Shown here piece after piece: positions 5,815 to 47,327 of a stretch of 64,000 nucleotides of DNA (the stretch's first letter is position 1; every line of letters starts with the position of its first letter). This DNA is from Escherichia coli (GTDB taxonomy: Bacteria > Pseudomonadota > Gammaproteobacteria > Enterobacterales > Enterobacteriaceae): the NCBI RefSeq assembly GCF_024502345.1, contig NZ_JALDNN010000001.1; one strand, written 5' to 3'. Under the pieces are notes generated by a model. It was not told where the DNA came from and made no database searches. It was given only the letters and a program-made list of their open reading frames with translations. The position numbers and the translations under genes were made by a program.

Positions 5815-7455
5815 TCACACCGTAGCGAAACTAACTTGTTCACCCGCTCCGCGAGGTTCTGCCGACACAGAATGTTTGTTCAGACGGAATACGTCCACCG
5901 CCTCAGTTAATCGTGCCGCCTGTTCTTCAAGGGACACCGCCGCTGCTGAGGCCTCTTCTACCAGAGAAGCATTCTGTTGCGTCACCTTATCCATTTCAGA
6001 AATCGCCTGGCTAACCTGAGTTATGCCTCTACTTTGTTCATCCGAGGCGGCGGCGATTTCCTGCATGATATGTGTGACACTCGCGACGGCATCAACAATA
6101 GTGCTCATGGTTTTCCCTGCCGTTGCCACCTCATCCGACCCCAGGTCAATTAACCTGACTGATTCACTGATCAAGCCTTCAATCTCTTTCGCCGCCTGAG
6201 CGCTGCGGCTTGCGAGTGTCCGTACTTCGCTGGCGACAACGGCAAATCCACGCCCTTGCTCACCCGCTCGCGCGGCTTCAACGGCAGCATTCAGTGCCAG
6301 AATATTCGTCTGGAAAGCAATACTGTTGATGACGGCGGTGATCTCAGAAATTTTCTTCGAACTCATAGAGATAGCACCCATCGTTTTTACTACCCCGGAA
6401 ACCGTCTGCCCGCCATCGCTGGCTTTAATAGAAGCCTCTTGCGCCAGTTTGCTGGCATGATGCGCGTTATCCGCATTCGGTTTCACCGTCGCAGTGAGTT
6501 GCTCCATGCTGGCGGCAGTTTGTTCGATAGCCGCCGCTTGTTCTTCGGTGCGAGATGAAAGGTCCGCATTGCCAGCGGAAATTTCGCTGGTGCCACGATA
6601 AATCTCTTCCGCACCCTGTCGAACAGTCCCTACGGTCATCCCCAGTGAATGCTGCATTTGCTGTAAATGACGACTTAAGCGACCGATTTCATTACGACCC
6701 GCCGGTTCATCCTTCATCGTCAGATCGCCACTAGCGATTTTTTCAATCCGTTGTGCGGCATGTTGCAGTGGACGAATGACGATCCGACGTAGCACCATAA
6801 ATGTTATCAGCGTCATGACCAGGGCAAGCACAAACGCGCCAATCATGAACATCCCACCCAGGCGGGTGCGCTGATGGGCCAGTTCCGCCAGTTGGTTGGC
6901 TCTGGTGCTACGTATCTTAACGGCTTTGTTCAAAATATCGGTATAAGCATTATCCAGCGGTCGGATCTGCTCACTTTCATGATTGATAATCGCTTCAAAC
7001 ATGCCATTTTTGGCATATTTCAACATAGGTTGCATACCCGTGATATAAGCCTGAAAGCGTTGATTTAATTCAGTGTCGAGGGCTTCATCAGCAGGTGTTT
7101 TCACCGGCCGATTCTGATAAGCACGATACCCTTGCTGCGACTGTTTAATCTCCGATTCGGCTTGCGCAATATTTCGCTTCATTGCTTCCATTTCCGCAAT
7201 ACGACTCGCAGCCCCGGCCTGAATCATATTGATCCGGGCTGAACGCAAAAAATCTGAACTGTTCGCCAACCCGGTCCGAATCTCAATCTCCGCAGTAACA
7301 TCACGCTGATCGCGATCGGCCTGCCAGAGGAAATAGCCAGCCAGAGCAGAACTTAATGCGAATAGAACTAAGATACCGCCAAGAATGCAGGCAAATAACG
7401 GAACCAGCCTGATGTGATGCAAAAAACCTAATCGCTGTGAGGGAGTTGTATTCAT
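5815..7455 (-). CDS. trg: Methyl-accepting chemotaxis protein III (ribose/galactose sensor)
   Basis: 546 aa; two transmembrane segments, HAMP and the highly conserved MCP signalling domain. Confidence 0.9.
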
Positions 7456-7495
7456 TACCGTTGTCTCTCGTCCAGGTTTACTCCTGATAGAAAGT

Positions 7496-7521
7496 CATCG
7501 GCACTTGACGGTAATTACTTA
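7496..7521 (-). promoter_or_regulatory. Candidate sigma-28 (FliA) promoter for trg
   Basis: On the minus strand TAAGTAAT-N11-GCCGATGA against the consensus TAAAGTTT-N11-GCCGATAA, about 40 bp upstream of the trg start codon. Confidence 0.45.
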
Positions 7522-7795
7522 TGACCAAAAACCTCTTTGCGTCACATTTTTACAACAATTATTGCAGAGAAAATTAATGCTATTGGAATGAAGAGAGTAA
7601 CGAATGGCTAAACTGGCTAACCCGAATGACGAAAAATTCTGGAAAACAGCACGCAATTTCGTGAAGTGATTATTTTCGTCCCTAAGGAAACCTCATAGGA
7701 TGCCTGCGGGTGCCTGAGACTTTCTGTTTTCAGGCTAACCGGGAATCAGAAAGACGAAGGCCCCGACCGATATTTCTATCAACCGAGGCCAACGA

Positions 7796-8003
<208 letters not shown>

Positions 8004-8418: not shown

Positions 8419-8483
8419 CTTCCGATGTAGACCCGTATTCTTCGCCTGTACCACGGGTCGGTTTTAGTACAGGCGTTTTCTTT
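8419..8483 (+). ncRNA. rydC: RydC small RNA (Hfq-dependent pseudoknot sRNA)
   Basis: DNA CTTCCGATGTAGACCCGTATTCTTCGCCTGTACCACGGGTCGGTTTTAGTACAGGCGTTTTCTTT matches the remembered RydC sequence and ends in a T-run, next to cybB. Confidence 0.7.
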
Positions 8484-17057: not shown

Positions 17058-17672
<615 letters not shown>

Positions 17673-17722: not shown

Positions 17723-20637
<2,915 letters not shown>

Positions 20638-21694
20638 GGCTTTGTTGAATAAATCGAACTTTTGCTGAGTTGAAGGATCAGATCACGTATCTTCCCGACA
20701 ACGCAGACCGTTCCGTGGCAAAGCAAAAGTTCAAAATCACCAACTGGCCCACCTACAATAAAGCCCTCATCAACCGTGGCTCCATAACTTTCTGGCTGGA
20801 TGATGAAGCTATTCAGGCCTGGTATGAGTCAGCAACACCTTCTTCACGAGGCAGACCTCAGCGCTATTCTGACCTTGCCATCACGACTGTGCTGGTCATT
20901 AAACGCGTATTCAGGCTGACCCTGCGCGCTGCGCAGGGCTTTATTGATTCCATTTTTTCTCTGATGAACGTTCCGCTACGCTGCCCGGATTACAGCTGTG
21001 TCAGCAGGCGGGCAAAGTCGGTTAATGTCAGTTTCAAAACGCCCACCCGGGGTGAAATCGCACACCTGGTAATTGATTCCACCGGGCTGAAGGTCTTCGG
21101 TGAAGGCGAGTGGAAAGTCAAAAAGCATGGCCAGGAACGCCGCCGTATCTGGCGTAAGCTGCATCTCGCCGTTGACAGTAAAACACATGAAATCATCTGC
21201 GCTGACCTGTCGCTGAACAACGTTACGGACTCAGAGGCCTTCCCCGGGTTAATCCGGCAAACCCACCGGAAAATCAGGTCAGCCGCCGCCGATGGCGCTT
21301 ACGATACCCGGCTATGTCACGATGAACTGCGGCGTAAGAAAATCAGCGCGCTTATCCCTCCCCGAAAAGGTGCGGGTTACTGGCCCGGTGAATATGCAGA
21401 CCGTAACCGTGCAGTGGCTAATCAGCGAATGACCGGGAGTAATGCGCGGTGGAAATGGACAACAGATTACAACCGTCGCTCGATAGCGGAAACGGCGATG
21501 TACCGGGTAAAACAGCTGTTCGGGGGTTCACTGACACTGCGTGACTACGATGGTCAGGTTGCAGAGGCTATGGCCCTGGTACGAGCGCTGAACAAAATGA
21601 CGAAAGCAGGTATGCCTGAAAGCGTGCGTATTGCCTGAAAACACAACCCGCTACGGGGGAGACTTACCCGAAATCTGATTTATTCAACAAAGCC
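20638..21694 (+). mobile_element. IS903-group (IS5 family) insertion sequence, 1057 bp
   Basis: Perfect 18-bp terminal inverted repeats GGCTTTGTTGAATAAATC at 20638..20655 and 21677..21694; a single transposase ORF; the flanking 9-mers ACGAGATGT and GAGTGATGC do not match, so there is no target-site duplication. Confidence 0.9.
20670..21638 (+). CDS. IS903-type DDE transposase
   Basis: Translation ...WPTYNKALINRGSITFWLDDEAIQAWYESATPSSRGRPQRYSDLAITTVLVIKRVFRLTLRAAQGF... matches the remembered IS903/IS102 transposase; the true start may be internal to the listed ORF. Confidence 0.85.
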   Translation: MKDQITYLPDNADRSVAKQKFKITNWPTYNKALINRGSITFWLDDEAIQAWYESATPSSRGRPQRYSDLAITTVLVIKRVFRLTLRAAQGFIDSIFSLMNVPLRCPDYSCVSRRAKSVNVSFKTPTRGEIAHLVIDSTGLKVFGEGEWKVKKHGQERRRIWRKLHLAVDSKTHEIICADLSLNNVTDSEAFPGLIRQTHRKIRSAAADGAYDTRLCHDELRRKKISALIPPRKGAGYWPGEYADRNRAVANQRMTGSNARWKWTTDYNRRSIAETAMYRVKQLFGGSLTLRDYDGQVAEAMALVRALNKMTKAGMPESVRIA

Positions 21695-22038
21695 GAGTGA
21701 TGCGTTACTTTCCGGTAAAAATAAAAAGGTAAATAGAGCGCAATATCGGAAATAACATCGCCAGTTTCATTCAAAATCGCCCCCAGACGTGTTTGCTGAT
21801 TGCACTCACGCGCCAACATGCCATCCAGCGCATTGAGCGCCATACGGATAAAAAGCACGATGGGCAATAGCAAAAAGAGGATGGGTTGTGCCACCAACAC
21901 CAACAGCAATCCGGTAAAAAGAGAAAGCGCCAGTGCCGTAAGAGTGATGTGATTCGCTGTAACGTGGTGCTTATAAAGCCAAAACATCGTCGGCCTTAAC
22001 AGCGACTGAAAGAGCGGTTTTATCTGGTAGAGCGTCAT
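21695..22038 (-). pseudogene. ynbA: CDP-alcohol phosphatidyltransferase YnbA, N-terminal ~114 codons only, 3' end replaced by the IS
   Basis: MTLYQIKPLFQSLLRPTMFWLYKHH... membrane protein; the ORF runs into the IS right end, against a remembered 201-aa full length. Confidence 0.5.
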
Positions 22039-22336
22039 TTATCATTCCGTGATATTCAGTTTGCTCTATGGTGCATCAATTGTGATGGCGGAGATATCAC
22101 AACGCGGAGCATCAACGTAAATTCGGAATATATCAAGATGTGGTGGATGGTTTTCCTACACATCTGTTTGATTACCGACTGGATGTCAGTGAGATACCAT
22201 CGATCACTGTACGAATCAATGAATCCATTGCCTTTTCCCTGATTATCCAGCCGCAAATCCTGGCCTTAAACATATGCACTCCATGCCATTAAAAAAGAAA
22301 CAAAAGGGAAATGCATCTTTCCCTTTTGTATATTCG

Positions 22337-23197
22337 TTATTCTCGCGAAATACCATCCAACGTAGACAACACTTCCTCAGAAAGATGCAATTTTTCAGCA
22401 GCCATATTCTCCCGTAAATGCGCAACAGAAGACGTCCCTGGGATCAGCAAAATATTCGGTGAACGTTGTAACAGCCACGCCAGCGCCACCTGCATGGGTG
22501 TTGCACCCAGGCTCGCAGCAACATCGGAAAGTGTGGACGATTGCAGCGGTGTAAAGCCCCCGAGCGGGAAGAACGGCACGTAGGCAATGCCATCGTGGGC
22601 CAAAGCATCAATCATTGCATCATCAGCACGGTGCGCGATGTTGTATTCGTTTTGCACACAGACAATTTCGGCAATCTTGCGCGCCTCTGCAACCTGCGTC
22701 GGTGTGACATTGCTCAGGCCAATATGTTTTACCAGGCCTTGTTGTTGCATCTCTGCCAGCACGGTCAGGCTGGCCTCAATCGATCCTTCCGCTGGGCCAT
22801 GACCATCCCCCATCATAACGCGCAGGTTAACCACATCCAGCACGTCCAGCCCGAGATTACGTAGATTATCGTGCACCGCTTTTTGCAGCTCTGCCGGAGA
22901 AAATGCGGGCAACCAGGAAGCGTCCTCTCCACGCCGCGCACCAATTTTAGTGACAATTGTCAGGTCGTCAGAGTAAGGATAAAGCGCTTCGCGGATAATC
23001 TGATTGGTGACGTGCGGACCATAAAAGTCGCTGGTATCAATGTGAGTGACGCCCAATGCCAGCGCCTCACGCAGCACAGTTATAGCGACGTGGCGATCTC
23101 TTGGGGGACCAAAAACCCCAGGACCTGCCAGTTGCATCGCGCCATAACCAAGACGGTTAACGGATTTTGTACCGAGAGTAAATGTATTGCTGCTCAT
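22337..23197 (-). CDS. ydbC: Aldo-keto reductase YdbC
   Basis: 286 aa, MSSNTFTLGTKSVNRLGYGAMQLAG..., AKR family; followed by a hairpin plus T-run near 22296..22330. Confidence 0.85.
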   Translation of the reverse strand: MSSNTFTLGTKSVNRLGYGAMQLAGPGVFGPPRDRHVAITVLREALALGVTHIDTSDFYGPHVTNQIIREALYPYSDDLTIVTKIGARRGEDASWLPAFSPAELQKAVHDNLRNLGLDVLDVVNLRVMMGDGHGPAEGSIEASLTVLAEMQQQGLVKHIGLSNVTPTQVAEARKIAEIVCVQNEYNIAHRADDAMIDALAHDGIAYVPFFPLGGFTPLQSSTLSDVAASLGATPMQVALAWLLQRSPNILLIPGTSSVAHLRENMAAEKLHLSEEVLSTLDGISRE

Positions 23198-23425
23198 CGC
23201 ACCCTGCCCTGTAATAAAACGGATTGAGAAAAATCAGTATAGAAACGAAAAGAGATAAATAATGCGAAGGCGTAAACAAGATTACTGGATGAGTTGCTCT
23301 ATTGTCCTGAAAAACACAAAACAAAACGCGTCAAGTACCGCATCCGGCAATAAAAAACCGCAACCTGTATAGCGTTGCGGTTTAGGTATCACATGCTAAA
23401 AATTAGAATGTTCAGTATCTGGACG

Positions 23426-24016
23426 TTACTGTTTCGGTCGCAGATTCTCATCAAATACCAGACGTTTCCTGTTCGGTTCAACTTCCCGCAATGGCTCAAC
23501 TTGATGCAACGTCTGCTTACAACGAGTCACCAGCACCTGATACTCATGCGTACCCTGCTTTTTCCATGCCAGCTCCTGCTCACTGAGTTCACGAATCGCT
23601 TTCGCCGGGCTGCCGACAATCAGGTAATTGGCAGGCATTTCTGCTTTGGCTTTCACAAATGCGGATGCGCCAACAATGCTGTTCTCGCCAATCACCGCGC
23701 CGTCCATCACTACCGCGTTCATTCCCACTAATGCATTGCGGCGGATAATGCAACCATGAAGGATAGCGCTATGACCAATATGCCCATCTTCTTCCACGAC
23801 AGTATCCTGTTCGGGAAAACCGTGCATAACGCAATTATCCTGAATGTTCGCGCCATCTTTCACTACGATACGACCAAAATCGCCACGCAGATTGGCATTT
23901 GGCCCAACGTAAACGCCCTTGCCGAGAATAACATCGCCGATCAATACCGCTGTCGGATGGACAAAACTCTCTTCTGGCACAACCGGAGTCAGACCATCTA
24001 TCTGGTAAATTGGCAT
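23426..24016 (-). CDS. paaY: Hexapeptide-repeat thioesterase PaaY, apparently intact
   Basis: 196 aa, [34 protein letters not shown]... Confidence 0.85.
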
Positions 24017-24555
24017 AACGCCTCCTGTTCAATATTCAAACCGCCAAAACGTTGAAAATACAGGCTTCCCGGCGCAGGCAGTTCACCGACCGAGGTTTCA
24101 CCTTTTTCACTAACGAACGCTAAAGCAGCAGGCGCTACGCGCTGATAAATGTTGATACACAGCTGACGCGCCGTATGCCCTGCCCAGTGCGCCGGAAGCA
24201 ACTCCTCTGGCAACAATGGGTCTTTAAGGACGACACGGCGATAAAAATGGATCAGTAAAAGCTGAATATGAAATGCACGCTCCGGGGTTAACTCGTCTGC
24301 TGCCTCTTTTAACAGCGGCACCAGCGGGCGGAATGACTGAATAAAGGTTTCGTACATGGCATTTTGTTCAGTTAAATGCCAGCACTCTTCCACTCTGGCA
24401 CGCAGTGCTGCACGAGAAAGCGCCAGTGGTATTTGCGCTTCAAAACAAATCACGTTATCCGCCAGAAGGGCATTATTTAGCGCATTACGTGCGGCGGGAC
24501 GGTTAAGGGTCAGCAACAATACTTGTTGCTGACGGCTGACGATCAGTTCGCTCAT
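23998..24555 (-). pseudogene. Deletion-fusion remnant: first ~31 codons of paaF joined in frame to the C-terminal ~150 codons of paaX
   Basis: Translation MSELIVSRQQQVLLLTLNRPAARNALNNALL (PaaF N-terminus) continues directly into ADNVICFEAQIPLALSRAALRARVEECWHL... (PaaX C-terminal half). Confidence 0.6.
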
Positions 24556-25193
24556 GCCATCCCCTTCGCGTCAAAGTCAACCACCACATCGCTGGTCAGC
24601 GGCAGTGCCTGGCAACTCAACACATAGCCTGCGGCCAGTTCATCCGGTTCCAGACTGTAATTGGTTTCCATCGCCACTTTGCCACGCAGCACTTTGCATT
24701 TGCAGGTCGCACAGACGCCGCCTTTGCAGGCATAGGGCAGATCAGCCCCCTGGCGCAATGCCGCATCGAGAATGCTTTCATCGTCGGCATTAAGCACGAT
24801 TTCCCGATCCCGCCCATCCTGACGTACAGTCACTTTTTGTCCGTCACTTTGCACGTTAACGCTACGTTTGACGCGCGTGCCAGGCGTATTAAACCGCTCC
24901 AGATGAATGGTTTTATCTGGCATTCCCAGTGCTTTTAAGGCGGCTTCCGTCTCATCCATCATCGCCGCCGGACCACAAATAAATGCCTCATCATAAAGAC
25001 GAAAATTAATGAGCGAGGCCCCAAGTGACTGTAATTTTTCACCGTCAATACGCCCGTGAAGCAGATCGCTGTCGAGGGTTTCCTGACTGAAAATGCACAA
25101 CAACTGTAAACGCTGAGGATATTTGTCTTTCAGGTCTGCCAGTGCCTGGCGAAACATCATGCTCTGGCTGGTACGGTTACCGTAGATCAGGGT
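24552..25193 (-). pseudogene. paaE: paaE remnant, C-terminal ~200 codons (NAD-binding and 2Fe-2S ferredoxin domains), N-terminus deleted
   Basis: MMFRQALADLKDKYPQRLQLL...CKGGVCATCKCKV... matches the PaaE C-terminus; PaaE-like sequence ([11 protein letters not shown]) extends upstream to about 25193 and then stops. Confidence 0.6.
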
Positions 25194-25956
25194 GATGCCC
25201 GCACAAAACCAGCGACATGCTCTGCAACTGGCTTGTGCAGGCGGCGGTAGCCTTGCGGGAACGCTGGTGACGGCTGATCCGCAAATTGCGCGTCAGTTTA
25301 TTGCCGACGCGGCACGTACGCATGGGCGAATTCAGATCCTCAATGAAGAATCGGCAAAAGAATCCACCGGGCATGGCTCCCCACTGCCACAACTGTTACA
25401 TGGTGGGCCTGGTCGCGCAGGAGGCGGTGAAGAATTAGGTGGTTTACGAGCGGTGAAACATTACATGCAGCGAACCGCTGTTCAGGGTAGTCCGACGATG
25501 CTTGCCGCTATCAGTAAACAGTGGGTGCGCGGTGCGAAAGTCGAAGAAGATCGTATTCATCCGTTCCGCAAATATTTTGAGGAGCTGCAACCAGGCGACA
25601 GCCTGTTGACTCCCCGCCGCACAATGACAGAGGCCGATATTGTTAACTTTGCTTGCCTCAGCGGCGATCATTTCTATGCACATATGGATAAAATTGCTGC
25701 TGCCGAATCTATTTTTGGTGAGCGTGTGGTACATGGATATTTTGTGCTTTCTGCGGCTGCGGGTCTGTTTGTCGATGCCGGTGTCGGTCCGGTCATAGCT
25801 AACTACGGGCTGGAAAACTTGCGTTTTATCGAACCCGTAAAACCAGGCGATACCATCCAGGTGCGTCTCACCTGTAAGCGCAAGACGCTGAAAAAACAGC
25901 GTAGCGCAGAAGAAAAACCAACAGGTGTGGTGGAATGGGCGGTATGGGCACGCTAA
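25192..25956 (+). pseudogene. paaZ: paaZ remnant: end of the aldehyde-dehydrogenase domain plus the MaoC hotdog domain, without N-terminus or native C-terminal end
   Basis: [35 protein letters not shown]... [48 protein letters not shown]... corresponds to PaaZ from about residue 430. Confidence 0.6.
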
Positions 25957-26963
25957 CCTCACCAATTGCTCGTGGTAAAGATGCCCCGTCTAACGCAGTG
26001 CTCCTTAATGAAACCATCGCCGACTACACTGGCGTGCCGATGGAGATCCCTCGCGCTATCGCGGTATTTGAACGTTATGCCGGGCCGGAGTATAAGCATC
26101 AGGAAATGGGCCAGCCCAACGTCAGTACCGAACGCCGGGAGTTAGTGGTGCGCTGGATCAGTACAGTGGGTAACTATGACTACATTTTTGACTGGATCTT
26201 CCATGAAAACGGCACTATTGGCATTGATGCCGGTGCTACGGGCATCGAAGCGGTGAAAGGTGTTAAAGCGAAAACCATGCACGATGAGACGGCGAAAGAT
26301 GACACGCGCTACGGCACGCTTATCGATCACAATATCGTGGGTACTACACACCAACATATTTATAATTTCCGCCTCGATCTGGATGTAGATGGCGAGAATA
26401 ACAGCCTGGTGGCGATGGACCCAGTGGTAAAACCGAATACTGCCGGTGGCCCACGCACCAGTACCATGCAAGTTAATCAGTACAACATCGGCAATGAACA
26501 GGATGCCGCGCAGAAGTTTGATCCGGGCACGATTCGTCTGTTGAGTAACCCGAACAAAGAGAACCGCATGGGCAATCCAGTTTCCTATCAAATTATTCCT
26601 TATGCAGGTGGTACTCACCCGGTAGCAAAAGGTGCCCAGTTCGCGCCGGACGTGTGGATCTATCATCGTTTAAGCTTTATGGACAAGCAGCTTTGGGTAA
26701 CGCGTTATCATCCTGGCGAGCGTTTCCCGGAAGGCAAATATCCGAACCGTTCTACTCATGACACCGGTCTTGGACAATACAGTAAAGATAACGAGTCGCT
26801 GGACAACACCGACGCCGTTGTCTGGATGACCACCGGCACCACACATGTGGCCCGCGCCGAAGAGTGGCCGATTATGCCGACCGAATGGGTACATACTCTG
26901 CTTAAACCATGGAACTTCTTTGACGAAACGCCAACGCTAGGGGCGCTGAAGAAAGATAAGTGA
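25935..26963 (+). pseudogene. tynA: tynA remnant: C-terminal ~340 codons of the periplasmic copper/topaquinone amine oxidase, lacking signal peptide and N-terminal domains
   Basis: Contains the cofactor-precursor motif region TVGNYDYIFDW and the C-terminal catalytic-domain sequence; overlaps the paaZ remnant out of frame; convergent with feaB as in K-12. Confidence 0.65.
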
Positions 26964-28755: not shown

Positions 28756-29661
28756 ATGAACCCCGCAGTGGATAATGAGTTTCAGCAATGGCTTTCCCAA
28801 ATCAATCAGGTATGCGGAAATTTTACCGGACACCTGCTGACTGAGCGTTACACGGGTGTACTGGATACGCATTTTGCCAAAGGACTAAAGCTGAGTACCG
28901 TGACAACCAGCGGGGTGAATTTATCCCGCACCTGGCAGGAAGTAAAAGGCAGCGACGATGCCTGGTTTTACACCGTTTTTCAGCTTAGTGGTCAGGCAAT
29001 AATGGAGCAGGATGAGCGTCAGGTGCAGATTGGCGCTGGCGATATTACGTTACTCGATGCCTCACGCCCCTGTTCGCTTTACTGGCAGGAGTCTTCTAAA
29101 CAGATTTCATTACTTTTGCCACGCACTCTGCTGGAACAATATTTTCCCCATCAAAAACCTGTCTGCGCAGAAAGACTGGACGCTGACTTACCCATGGTGC
29201 AACTCAGTCATCGCCTGTTACAGGAGAGCATGAATAATCCGGCACTTTCTGAAACAGAAAGTGAAGCTGCGCTACAGGCGATGGTGTGTCTGCTGCGCCC
29301 GGTACTTCATCAGCGGGAATCTGTTCAACCTCGTCGTGAACGTCAGTTTCAAAAAGTGGTTACGTTGATAGACGATAATATTCGCGAAGAGATATTACGC
29401 CCGGAGTGGATAGCCGGAGAGACAGGTATGTCAGTACGTAGTTTGTACCGAATGTTTGCCGATAAAGGTTTGGTGGTCGCGCAATATATTCGTAACCGTC
29501 GTCTCGATTTTTGTGCAGATGCGATTCGCCATGCCGCAGATGATGAAAAACTGGCAGGCATCGGCTTTCATTGGGTATTTTCTGACCAGAGTCATTTTTC
29601 AACGGTATTTAAGCAACGCTTTGGGATGACGCCAGGCGAGTATCGACGTAAATTCCGCTAA
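28756..29661 (+). CDS. feaR: AraC-family activator of the tynA/feaB pathway
   Basis: 301 aa with a C-terminal AraC-type HTH; divergent from feaB. Confidence 0.9.
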   Translation: MNPAVDNEFQQWLSQINQVCGNFTGHLLTERYTGVLDTHFAKGLKLSTVTTSGVNLSRTWQEVKGSDDAWFYTVFQLSGQAIMEQDERQVQIGAGDITLLDASRPCSLYWQESSKQISLLLPRTLLEQYFPHQKPVCAERLDADLPMVQLSHRLLQESMNNPALSETESEAALQAMVCLLRPVLHQRESVQPRRERQFQKVVTLIDDNIREEILRPEWIAGETGMSVRSLYRMFADKGLVVAQYIRNRRLDFCADAIRHAADDEKLAGIGFHWVFSDQSHFSTVFKQRFGMTPGEYRRKFR

Positions 29662-38917: not shown

Positions 38918-39144
38918 CCGCGCAGAATAACGTATAGAAAATTAAAAGTATAATTTTTATTTTGTATGTATTATCTTCGATACATTCACCAGACTTATTA
39001 TCATTTCAGAAGAATTATTTGATTAAGGTTTTACTTAAGGCGTAACAAATGATATTTATCGGCTAACTGAACTTCTCCTTTAGGATGTTTTCACTCCCCG
39101 GAATGGGGATAAAAGGCAAATAAAATAACTAAAGGATTTATTCA

Positions 39145-40278
39145 ATGAAAAGCAAAGTACTGGCACTTTTAAATCCTGCCCTGCTCGCCGCAGGTGCTGC
39201 ACATGCAGCCGAAGTTTATAATAAAGACGGCAACAAATTAGATCTGTATGGCAAAGTTGATGGCCTGCATTATTTTTCTGATAATTCAGCGAAAGATGGC
39301 GATCAGAGCTATGCGCGTCTGGGTTTTAAAGGCGAAACCCAAATTAACGATCAACTCACTGGCTACGGTCAATGGGAATACAATATTCAGGCAAACAACA
39401 CTGAATCTTCAAAAAACCAGTCATGGACCCGTCTGGCATTTGCCGGGCTGAAATTTGCAGATTACGGTTCTTTCGATTACGGACGTAATTATGGCGTAAT
39501 GTACGACATCGAAAGCTGGACCGATATGCTGCCTGAATTTGGCGGTGACTCTTATACCAATGCAGACAACTTTATGACTGGTCGTGCCAACGGCGTCGCG
39601 ACTTATCGTAATACTGATTTCTTCGGTCTGGTAAATGGTCTGAACTTCGCGGTGCAGTATCAAGGTAACAACGAAGGTGCCAGTAATGGTCAGGAAGGCA
39701 CCAACAACGGACGTGATGTTCGCCATGAAAATGGTGACGGCTGGGGTCTTTCCACAACATATGATTTAGGCATGGGCTTTAGCGCTGGTGCGGCATACAC
39801 CTCATCTGACCGCACCAATGACCAGGTTAACCATACTGCGGCGGGTGGTGATAAAGCAGACGCGTGGACTGCTGGGCTAAAATACGATGCTAACAATATT
39901 TACCTGGCAACCATGTATTCAGAAACGCGTAATATGACCCCGTTTGGCGACAGCGATTATGCTGTTGCAAACAAAACCCAGAACTTTGAAGTCACTGCAC
40001 AGTACCAGTTTGATTTTGGTCTGCGTCCGGCAGTCTCTTTCCTGATGTCTAAAGGCCGTGACCTGCACGCTGCCGGTGGTGCAGACAACCCGGCAGGTGT
40101 TGATGATAAAGATCTTGTTAAATACGCCGATGTTGGCGCGACTTACTATTTCAATAAAAACATGTCCACTTATGTTGACTATAAAATCAACCTGTTGGAT
40201 GAAGATGACAGTTTCTACGCTGCCAACGGCATCTCTACCGATGATATTGTCGCTTTAGGTCTGGTTTATCAGTTCTAA
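39145..40278 (+). CDS. ompN: Outer-membrane porin N (OmpC/OmpF family)
   Basis: 377 aa with a signal peptide and the general-porin C-terminus ...LGLVYQF. Confidence 0.9.
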
Positions 40279-41028: not shown

Positions 41029-41964
41029 ATGTCGCAAAATCAAGAAATTAGTAAGAAAGAACAATACAACCTGAACAAATTACAAAAACGTCTGCGTCGT
41101 AACGTGGGCGAAGCCATTGCTGACTTCAATATGATTGAAGAAGGCGATCGCATCATGGTTTGCCTCTCCGGGGGTAAAGACAGCTATACCATGCTGGAGA
41201 TTCTGCGCAATTTGCAGCAAAGCGCGCCAATCAATTTTTCGCTGGTGGCTGTTAACCTCGATCAAAAGCAACCGGGCTTCCCGGAACACGTTCTGCCCGA
41301 GTATCTTGAAAAGCTGGGCGTTGAGTACAAGATTGTCGAAGAGAACACTTACGGTATCGTGAAAGAGAAGATTCCAGAGGGCAAAACCACTTGCTCACTG
41401 TGTTCTCGCCTTCGTCGCGGTATCCTTTATCGTACCGCAACGGAACTGGGGGCGACGAAGATCGCGCTGGGTCACCATCGTGACGATATCCTGCAGACGT
41501 TGTTCTTAAATATGTTCTACGGCGGCAAGATGAAAGGTATGCCTCCGAAACTGATGAGCGATGATGGCAAACATATCGTTATTCGTCCGCTGGCCTACTG
41601 CCGCGAGAAAGATATTCAGCGATTTGCCGATGCAAAAGCGTTCCCGATTATTCCGTGCAACCTGTGCGGTTCACAGCCTAACCTGCAACGTCAGGTGATT
41701 GCTGACATGTTGCGTGACTGGGATAAACGTTATCCAGGGCGTATCGAGACGATGTTCAGCGCGATGCAGAATGTGGTGCCGTCGCATCTGTGCGATACTA
41801 ACCTGTTCGATTTCAAAGGCATCACCCACGGTTCTGAAGTGGTTAACGGGGGTGATTTGGCGTTTGATCGCGAAGAGATCCCACTACAACCGGCGGGCTG
41901 GCAGCCAGAAGAAGATGAAAATCAGTTGGATGAGTTACGGCTGAATGTGGTTGAAGTGAAATAA
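41029..41964 (+). CDS. ttcA: tRNA 2-thiocytidine(32) synthetase
   Basis: 311 aa; SGGKDS PP-loop motif and CxxC motifs. Confidence 0.9.
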
Positions 41965-43726: not shown

Positions 43727-43848
43727 AAAAAAAAGCCGACTCATCAAAGTCGGCGTCGTACGAATCAATTGTGCTATGCAGTAATTCAAAAAAGGAAGTA
43801 AGACAATATGGAGCGCAACGCCCATCGCTTGACGTTGCATTCACCTGC
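43727..43848 (-). ncRNA. fnrS: FnrS small RNA (FNR-activated, Hfq-dependent)
   Basis: The minus strand reads GCAGGTGAATGCAACGTCAAGCGATGGGCGTTGCGCTCCATATTGTCTTACTTCCTTTTTTGAATTACTGCATAGCACAATTGATTCGTACGACGCCGACTTTGATGAGTCGGCTTTTTTTT, matching remembered FnrS, with a terminal hairpin and T-run. Confidence 0.8.
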
Positions 43849-46998: not shown

Positions 46999-47283
46999 GT
47001 TACATCCTCCCGCAATTAAGAGCGCGATATGATAACCAGACCGGGTCGGTCCAACAACGTATTACCCAAAATTCCAGTAATAAGTTCCAAATATTGCCGA
47101 TATTTTAAGCAAAATGCTTATGCATGATTATTCATTCACGATATTAATAATGTAACTTATATTTTCGTGAAATCTGTCACTGAAGAAAATTGGCAACTAA
47201 AGGTTAAAACCGTTATAACACAGTCACCGGCGCAGAGGAGACAATGCCGGACTTAAGACGCGGATGCACTGCTGTGTGTACTG

Positions 47284-47319
47284 TAGAGTCTGGCGGATGT
47301 CGACAGACTCTATTTTTTT
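47284..47319 (+). terminator. Strong plus-strand hairpin with T7 run and no plus-strand CDS upstream; possible sRNA 3' end (IsrA-like position)
   Basis: TAGAGTCTG-gcggatgtcga-CAGACTCTA followed by TTTTTTT; lies in the smrA-abgR intergenic region, where both flanking genes are on the minus strand. Confidence 0.35.
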
Positions 47320-47327
47320 ATGCAGTT

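Follow-up and report, generated by a model that had tools for sequence, protein, structure and literature searches.

The promoter of the aer gene, dissected by Hollands et al. (2010, PMC2859248), offers a described parallel to the promoter upstream of trg. Both drive a gene for an MCP-type receptor and combine a sigma-28 (FliA) -35/-10 pair at N11 spacing with an imperfect -10 element, and in both a CRP 22-mer lies 6 bp upstream of the -35 octamer. At aer, transcription was reported to start 6 bp after the -10 octamer (Hollands 2010, PMC2859248), single changes at T1, A3 and G5 of the -35 element decreased activity 4-10-fold (PMC2859248), and the aer206 mutation is a substitution in the CCGAT core, turning GCCGACAT into GCGCTCAT. 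The two promoters nevertheless differ in the distribution of their strength: aer associates a good -35 element (TAAAGATA, 8.8 bits) with a poorer -10 element (GCCGACAT, 7.8 bits), whereas trg presents the reverse (4.1 and 10.2 bits, respectively), and the CRP site of aer, AATTGCGATCTAAATCAAATTA, matches the consensus at 17 of 22 positions, compared to 13 of 22 for AAATGTGACGCAAAGAGGTTTT at trg.

The same study provides the main evidence for CRP at trg (Hollands et al. 2010, PMC2859248). A trg100::lacZ fusion was found to be both sigma-28-dependent and CRP-activated, the CRP effect being recorded in crp+ and crp- backgrounds with sigma-28 supplied in trans and hence separate from sigma-28 levels. 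Besides, CRP shifts a trg fragment in EMSA with an affinity like that for aer, and the spacing between CRP and promoter is equal in aer and trg, the only two of eight sigma-28 promoters to behave so. This geometry was described as apparently optimal for activation, and the case for the exact trg site was made from the alignment with aer and not from mutations. By comparison, the canonical class-3 promoters (tar, motA, flgMN, tsr and fliC) share with trg the sigma factor, the spacing and the dependence on fliA, but no CRP effect is seen there: tar, motA, flgMN and tsr score 22-27 bits and fliC 15, whereas the CRP-activated trg promoter scores 14.7 bits.

Regarding trg itself, its dependence on FliA has long been known and its promoter is already described (RegulonDB trgp1, Hollands 2010, Cho 2014, Fitzgerald 2014), the exact site being present in RegulonDB and in genome-wide ChIP-seq tables, so that the discovery value of the present identification is small. 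Fitzgerald et al. list for trg a FliA ChIP-seq motif, the 28-mer TAAGTAATTACCGTCAAGTGCCGATGAC, that is identical to the one analysed here, with a fold above threshold (FAT) of 23 (PMC4183435, Table 2), and report a 27-fold drop in normalised trg RNA, from 108 in motile MG1655 to a significantly different 4 in a fliA deletion (PMC4183435). The array ratios of Zhao 2007 for trg are -2.0-fold in the mutant and 2.2-fold upon induction. Concerning the 5' end, Cho et al. 2014 (PMC3923258, Tables S4 and S6) give a + strand transcription start at NC_000913.2 1490461, based on 8 reads in one condition, with an upstream sequence that ends in ...GCCGATGACTTTCTA, and RegulonDB trgp1, as reproduced in the Fitzgerald supplement, gives 1490463. 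At the coordinates where the trg start is expected, the Cappable-seq supplement lists nothing; neither FliA nor trg is covered by the ROSE in-vitro transcription paper, and the Fitzgerald 2017 preprint, which treats the conservation of FliA promoters, is silent on trg. FliA occupancy, fliA-dependent RNA, the dependence of a lacZ fusion on sigma-28 and CRP, the binding of CRP to the fragment and a 5' end are all established in K-12.

Anatomy of the trg promoter

The window, i.e. the whole 64,000-nucleotide stretch of Escherichia coli DNA analysed here (contig NZ_JALDNN010000001.1 of assembly GCF_024502345.1), contains upstream of trg a site that is almost certainly a class-3 (late) FliA promoter of this gene with CRP co-activation of the aer type. 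Read directly from the window sequence, the minus strand presents in this order TAAGTAAT, 11 nt, GCCGATGA, 39 nt and the ATG of trg (Table 1). The flanking context is GGTCA TAAGTAAT TACCGTCAAGT GCCGATGA CTTTCTATCAGGAG...ATG, and a longer reading gives TGTAAAAATGTGACGCAAAGAGGTTTTTGGTCA-TAAGTAAT-TACCGTCAAGT-GCCGATGA-CTTTCTATCAGGAGTAAACCTGGACGAGAGACAACGGTA-ATG. The preliminary description of this DNA had placed both octamers on the minus strand, 11 nt apart and some 40 bp ahead of trg, with seven of eight positions of GCCGATGA agreeing with the -10 consensus GCCGATAA, and the direct reading concurs on each of these points; its count of five of eight for the -35 element has to be lowered to four (TAAGTAAT against TAAAGTTT), and its lower boundary, 7496, has to be moved by one base, the element extending to 7495. 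Other -35 registers bring no gain over N11, a 10-nt spacer giving 3/8 and a 12-nt spacer 4/8; the N11 register is favoured because the leading TAA of the -35 element is conserved across genera.

Between the CRP site and the start codon, the promoter is identical to that of K-12, which also shares the 28-mer (NC_000913.3 1492404-1492431), the gene and its neighbours (hokB/sokB upstream and ydcI downstream). The identity covers window positions 7440-7566, and the nearest difference is one SNP at about 7567, approximately 18 nt beyond the upstream edge of the CRP site. At the sequence level, the K-12 results can therefore be carried over to the window, and they would be expected to hold in the strain from which the window comes, including an active flagellar cascade. 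When carried to the window through K-12, the start of Cho et al. (1490461) falls 7 nt and that of RegulonDB (1490463) 9 nt past the -10 octamer, the two disagreeing by 2 nt. The preliminary description, which viewed the site as a sigma-28 promoter making trg a gene of the late flagellar class and expected a start 6 to 9 nt past the -10 element, is thus borne out by these mapped starts, and also by the ChIP-seq, the RNA of the fliA deletion and the lacZ fusion. As for the mRNA leader, its predicted fold is not significant against shuffles (z = 0.85) and a riboregulatory element is therefore not proposed.

Table 1. Coordinates of the trg promoter, its surroundings and other FliA-like sites in the window
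Feature	Position	Strand	Basis or remark
Candidate CRP site AAATGTGACGCAAAGAGGTTTT	7528..7549	-	best CRP-consensus match upstream; aer-like offset
Sigma-28 -35 element TAAGTAAT	7514..7521	-	4/8 to TAAAGTTT; +4.1 bits
Spacer TACCGTCAAGT, 11 nt	7503..7513	-	length fixed across genera, sequence unconserved
Sigma-28 -10 element GCCGATGA	7495..7502	-	7/8 to GCCGATAA; 10.2 bits
Transcription start, A 7488 (Cho 2014) or C 7486 (RegulonDB trgp1)	7486..7488	-	
trg mRNA 5' leader, ~31-33 nt	7456..7485	-	fold compared with shuffles
trg CDS, 546 aa, methyl-accepting chemotaxis protein III	5815..7455	-	ORF list, RefSeq, MCP family matches
hokB/sokB and RydC region features	7708-7859, 8419-8482, 7759-7790	+, +, -	
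FliA-like site, antisense in azoR	17553-17580	-	score at least that of the trg site
FliA-like site, in feaR	29352-29379	+	score at least that of the trg site
FliA-like site, 3' part of ompN	40107-40134	+	score at least that of the trg site

Distinctiveness of the FliA motif

Judged by the number of mismatches, 18 sites in the window equal or beat the trg site, and a consensus search of the whole window at three mismatches or fewer returned two other sites and missed it. The site was also scored with a leave-one-out weight matrix made from the 51 other FliA ChIP-seq motifs (Fitzgerald et al. 2014), trg being omitted. On this scale it reaches 14.7-14.8 bits and is ranked fourth in the window with all 51 sites and third with the strongly bound sites only, five of 127,946 positions scoring at least as high with a uniform background. 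Among the 52 bound sites, the -35 element of trg (4.1 bits) takes rank 27 and its -10 element (10.2 bits) rank 39, the site as a whole belonging to the lower middle of these real FliA sites. Dinucleotide shuffles give an expectation of 0.72 such sites per window, compared to 5 in the real sequence, and such motifs are therefore over-represented in real DNA. For a given gene, the chance of finding one within the 100 sense-strand nucleotides that precede it amounts to about 6e-4 at the shuffle rate and about 4e-3 at the rate of the real sequence; once its position is counted, the trg match is modestly significant.

The best match of the window to the FliA matrix lies elsewhere, at 39055-39082 (minus strand), where TAAAGGAGAAGTTCAGTTAGCCGATAAA scores 18 bits with a perfect -10 element and is located between ompN and micC, 136 nt ahead of the 5' end of MicC (38920). 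Another FliA-like sequence, GTAATAAGTTCCAAATATTGCCGATATT at 47077-47104 (plus strand, 14.6 bits), precedes the motility-related sRNA McaS (47226-47321) by 123 nt; it does not coincide with the 5' end of McaS, and it is not known to be supported by ChIP. The three intragenic sites of Table 1 exemplify how motifs of the GCCGATAA type are in excess in coding sequence. The 28-mers at 39055-39082, 17553-17580 and 29352-29379 are unchanged in K-12, and Fitzgerald 2014 (PMC4183435) called no FliA ChIP-seq peak between K-12 coordinates 1243779 and 1490461. Since sites of at least equal score are thus present in K-12 but unbound, a consensus match of such quality is not predictive alone. In the light of this, the motif on which the preliminary description had relied is indeed present, but the match itself is no better than several unbound sites of the window; taken alone it constitutes weak evidence, and context and experiments decide.

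Conservation of the promoter

Within the species, seven E. coli alleles (at least 95% identity) keep the -10 octamer and the TGTGA half-site invariant, one of them having TAAGAAAT as -35 element; this conservation is uninformative because the whole region is at least 95% identical. Beyond the species, a scan of one genome per species with Trg yielded 80 loci with 61-89% amino acid identity, of which 79 were analysed, one having too little upstream sequence. The taxa covered are Escherichia clades, Citrobacter, Enterobacter, Leclercia, Kosakonia, Kluyvera, Buttiauxella, Cedecea, Pantoea, Mixta, Dickeya and others. Over the 250 nt that precede these 79 genes, the best site for the FliA matrix has a median score of 14.4 bits on the sense strand, compared to 4.0 bits on the antisense strand and 7.4 bits in coding sequence, and a score of 14 bits or more is reached in 50, 0 and 2 of the 79 cases, respectively. 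A GCCGAT-type core lies at most 80 nt from the start codon at 76 of the 79 loci.

The 70 distinct 28-mers recovered in this way indicate which positions are held. The core is GCCGAT in 69 of them and GTCGAT in the remaining one, and at position 7 of the -10 element an off-consensus G persists in 67 of 70, across a range that runs from Escherichia to Pantoea and Dickeya. In the -35 octamer, the leading TAA is retained in 60-68 of 70 and positions 4-8 vary freely, and the spacer is fixed in length with an unconserved sequence. Upstream of the -35 element, 56 of the 76 loci of other genera carry a TG[T/C/A]GA half-site at a distance of 26 nt, compared to 25 nt, i.e. 1 bp closer, in the Escherichia-type sequences (the window and the loci L012 and L013). 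At the CRP position, the Pantoea group and Mixta possess a sequence with two half-sites, TGCGA-N6-TCTCA, and the conserved downstream block of most Enterobacteriaceae is GCGCTTTT, not TCACA. This cross-genus conservation provides strong independent support for the FliA elements, the CRP site and the N11 register. The difference between 25 and 26 nt may represent a shift within the geometry reported as apparently optimal.

The CRP site

In the region upstream of trg, the CRP consensus is best matched by AAATGTGACGCAAAGAGGTTTT, which ends 6 bp before the -35 octamer. Its left half, TGTGA (7546-7542), is perfect (5/5), its right half matches none of the five core positions, and 13 of the 22 positions agree overall. 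The centre of the 22-mer would be at -49.5 if transcription started at 7489, as the analogy with aer predicts, and is at -50.5 with the start of Cho et al. CRP probably uses exactly this 22-mer at trg. While the sigma-28 part of the preliminary description stood, the direct activation by CRP, probably from 7549-7528, had been missed there, and the picture of the promoter has to be completed in this respect.

Alternative explanations

Given the number of comparable motifs, it could be proposed that the FliA match is fortuitous and that trg is driven by another promoter, of the sigma-70 or sigma-38 type, in the hokB-trg intergenic region. Such a proposal draws on the 18 sites of equal or better mismatch count, on the 3-4 sites with a higher matrix score, of which those at 39055-39082, 40107-40134 and 17553-17580 are without a FliA ChIP-seq peak, and on the ChIP-chip data of Cho et al. 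2014 (PMC3923258), in which the trg region is bound by sigma-70 and sigma-38 as well as sigma-28, with motif support for sigma-38 and sigma-28. However, no sigma-70-like pair (TTGACA-N16-18-TATAAT) is present on either strand between 7350 and 7850, and the low-resolution sigma-70 signal can stem from the hokB/sokB promoters situated 220-320 bp away. Above all, FliA occupies trg, whose RNA decreases 27-fold in its absence and whose lacZ fusion needs sigma-28; the mapped starts lie 7-9 nt past the octamer, and conservation across genera is confined to the sense strand. A chance match is, in consequence of these data, extremely unlikely.

The two other alternatives accept the -10 element and question its partners. 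On the one hand, TAAGTAAT might not function as a -35 element, the contact being replaced by CRP. This would agree with its low match (4/8, only 4.1 bits), with the freedom of octamer positions 4-8 across genera and with the report of Plitnick et al. that a good -35 element is absent from many FliA-bound sites; nevertheless, the TAA at N11 is kept in 60-68 of the 70 promoters when the adjacent spacer is not, and the aer -35 mutants at T1, A3 and G5 lose activity 4-10-fold, which makes a promoter devoid of a -35 contact improbable. On the other hand, the TGTGA block could be an UP-like element or be recognised by a different factor, CRP acting elsewhere in the fragment, as might be suspected from a right half-site at 0/5 in E. 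coli, from the presence of GCGCTTTT instead of TCACA in most Enterobacteriaceae and from the fact that the site was left unmutated at trg in Hollands 2010 (PMC2859248). Yet the trg fragment is shifted by CRP, whose direct effect is independent of sigma-28 levels, the block has the same offset from the -35 element as the mutationally proven site of aer, and Pantoea and Mixta hold TGCGA-N6-TCTCA at this very position, so that a role of the block unrelated to CRP appears very unlikely.

Genomic surroundings

The 546-aa open reading frame downstream of the promoter is Trg, as labelled by RefSeq in many E. coli genomes whose DNA matches it at 100%, and corresponds to K-12 b1421 with 5 amino acid changes relative to K-12 Trg. 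Its neighbours are cybB, ydcA, yncP and hokB/sokB upstream and the convergent ydcI downstream, no intrinsic terminator being detected in the 37-bp convergent gap between trg and ydcI. The type I toxin-antitoxin locus hokB/sokB (Rfam sok match) lies directly upstream of the trg promoter, where the sRNA RydC is found too. Within the sok match, a terminator-like hairpin with a 14-bp stem occupies 7790-7759 on the trg strand and could insulate trg against upstream transcription.

For approximately 650 of 5104 matching complete E. coli genomes, the alignment is limited to that part of the intergenic region which adjoins hokB. In one strain, Ecol_AZ146 (NZ_CP018991.1), trg is annotated without its N-terminus, and the deletion takes away both the 5' part of the gene and its FliA/CRP promoter. 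This truncated trg appears to be the 'Tls' allele of the B2 phylogroup (PMC12623472), which, being devoid of the FliA/CRP promoter, must therefore be expressed from other signals.

Elsewhere in the window, an IS5-family element of 1057 bp (20638-21694) is inserted in the ynbC/ynbB region, with a 322-aa transposase ORF (20670-21638) and terminal inverted repeats of 33 nt. Between 22137 and 25944, comparison with K-12 reveals that ydbD is missing and ydbA absent, and that the paa/tynA cluster is cut to three fragments of about 730-1040 bp joined at short overlaps (a paaY-paaX part, a paaE/F part and a paaZ part). The stretch 20400-26400 was found in one piece in none of the complete E. coli genomes of the collection, which would not include Shigella. 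These features suggest that the lineage of the window is IS-rich and decaying, possibly Shigella-like. In a comparison covering K-12 1425000-1500500, the Rac prophage of K-12 proved to be absent, the similarity stopping at the Rac boundary (K-12 1434959), from window position 41078 onward; beyond it, the window holds FnrS (43731-43848, minus strand) and McaS (47226-47321, plus strand).

Proposed mechanism and significance

In the proposed mechanism, E-sigma-28 recognises the -10 element GCCGATGA and, 11 nt upstream, the weak -35 element TAAGTAAT, and starts transcription 7-9 nt past the -10 octamer (7488-7486), giving a leader of about 32 nt up to the trg ATG. Because both elements are sub-optimal, the promoter needs cAMP-CRP too. 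Bound at 7549-7528, 6 bp upstream of the -35 element, cAMP-CRP would recruit E-sigma-28 in the way it does at aer, a mechanism and a geometry that are transposed to trg by analogy. Under the dual control of FliA and CRP, trg is therefore gated by the flagellar cascade (FlhDC, FliA and the release of FlgM) and by the carbon status of the cell: the receptor would be made only once the cascade reaches the FliA stage, at a level raised when preferred carbon is scarce, and such gating would fit the role of a chemoreceptor for ribose and galactose.

Two aspects of these results are mildly new, namely the breadth of the conservation of the -10 G and the spacing of CRP, in which Escherichia differs by 1 bp from the other genera. 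In addition, the site can serve as a calibration case, a correct promoter call having been made from sequence alone despite the presence, in the same 64 kb, of unbound sites matching or beating its score of about 14.7 bits. Since unbound sites score as well, it is the position upstream of a chemoreceptor gene and the cross-genus conservation, not the consensus match, that make such calls reliable. Finally, the conserved -10 G, the -35 element reduced to TAA and the fixed offset of CRP raise the possibility, put forward here tentatively and with some doubt, that the weakness of the promoter is selected and not accidental, and would keep trg conditional on CRP. The conserved sub-optimal -10 element and the fixed CRP offset may thereby give a handle on how activator dependence persists at alternative-sigma promoters.
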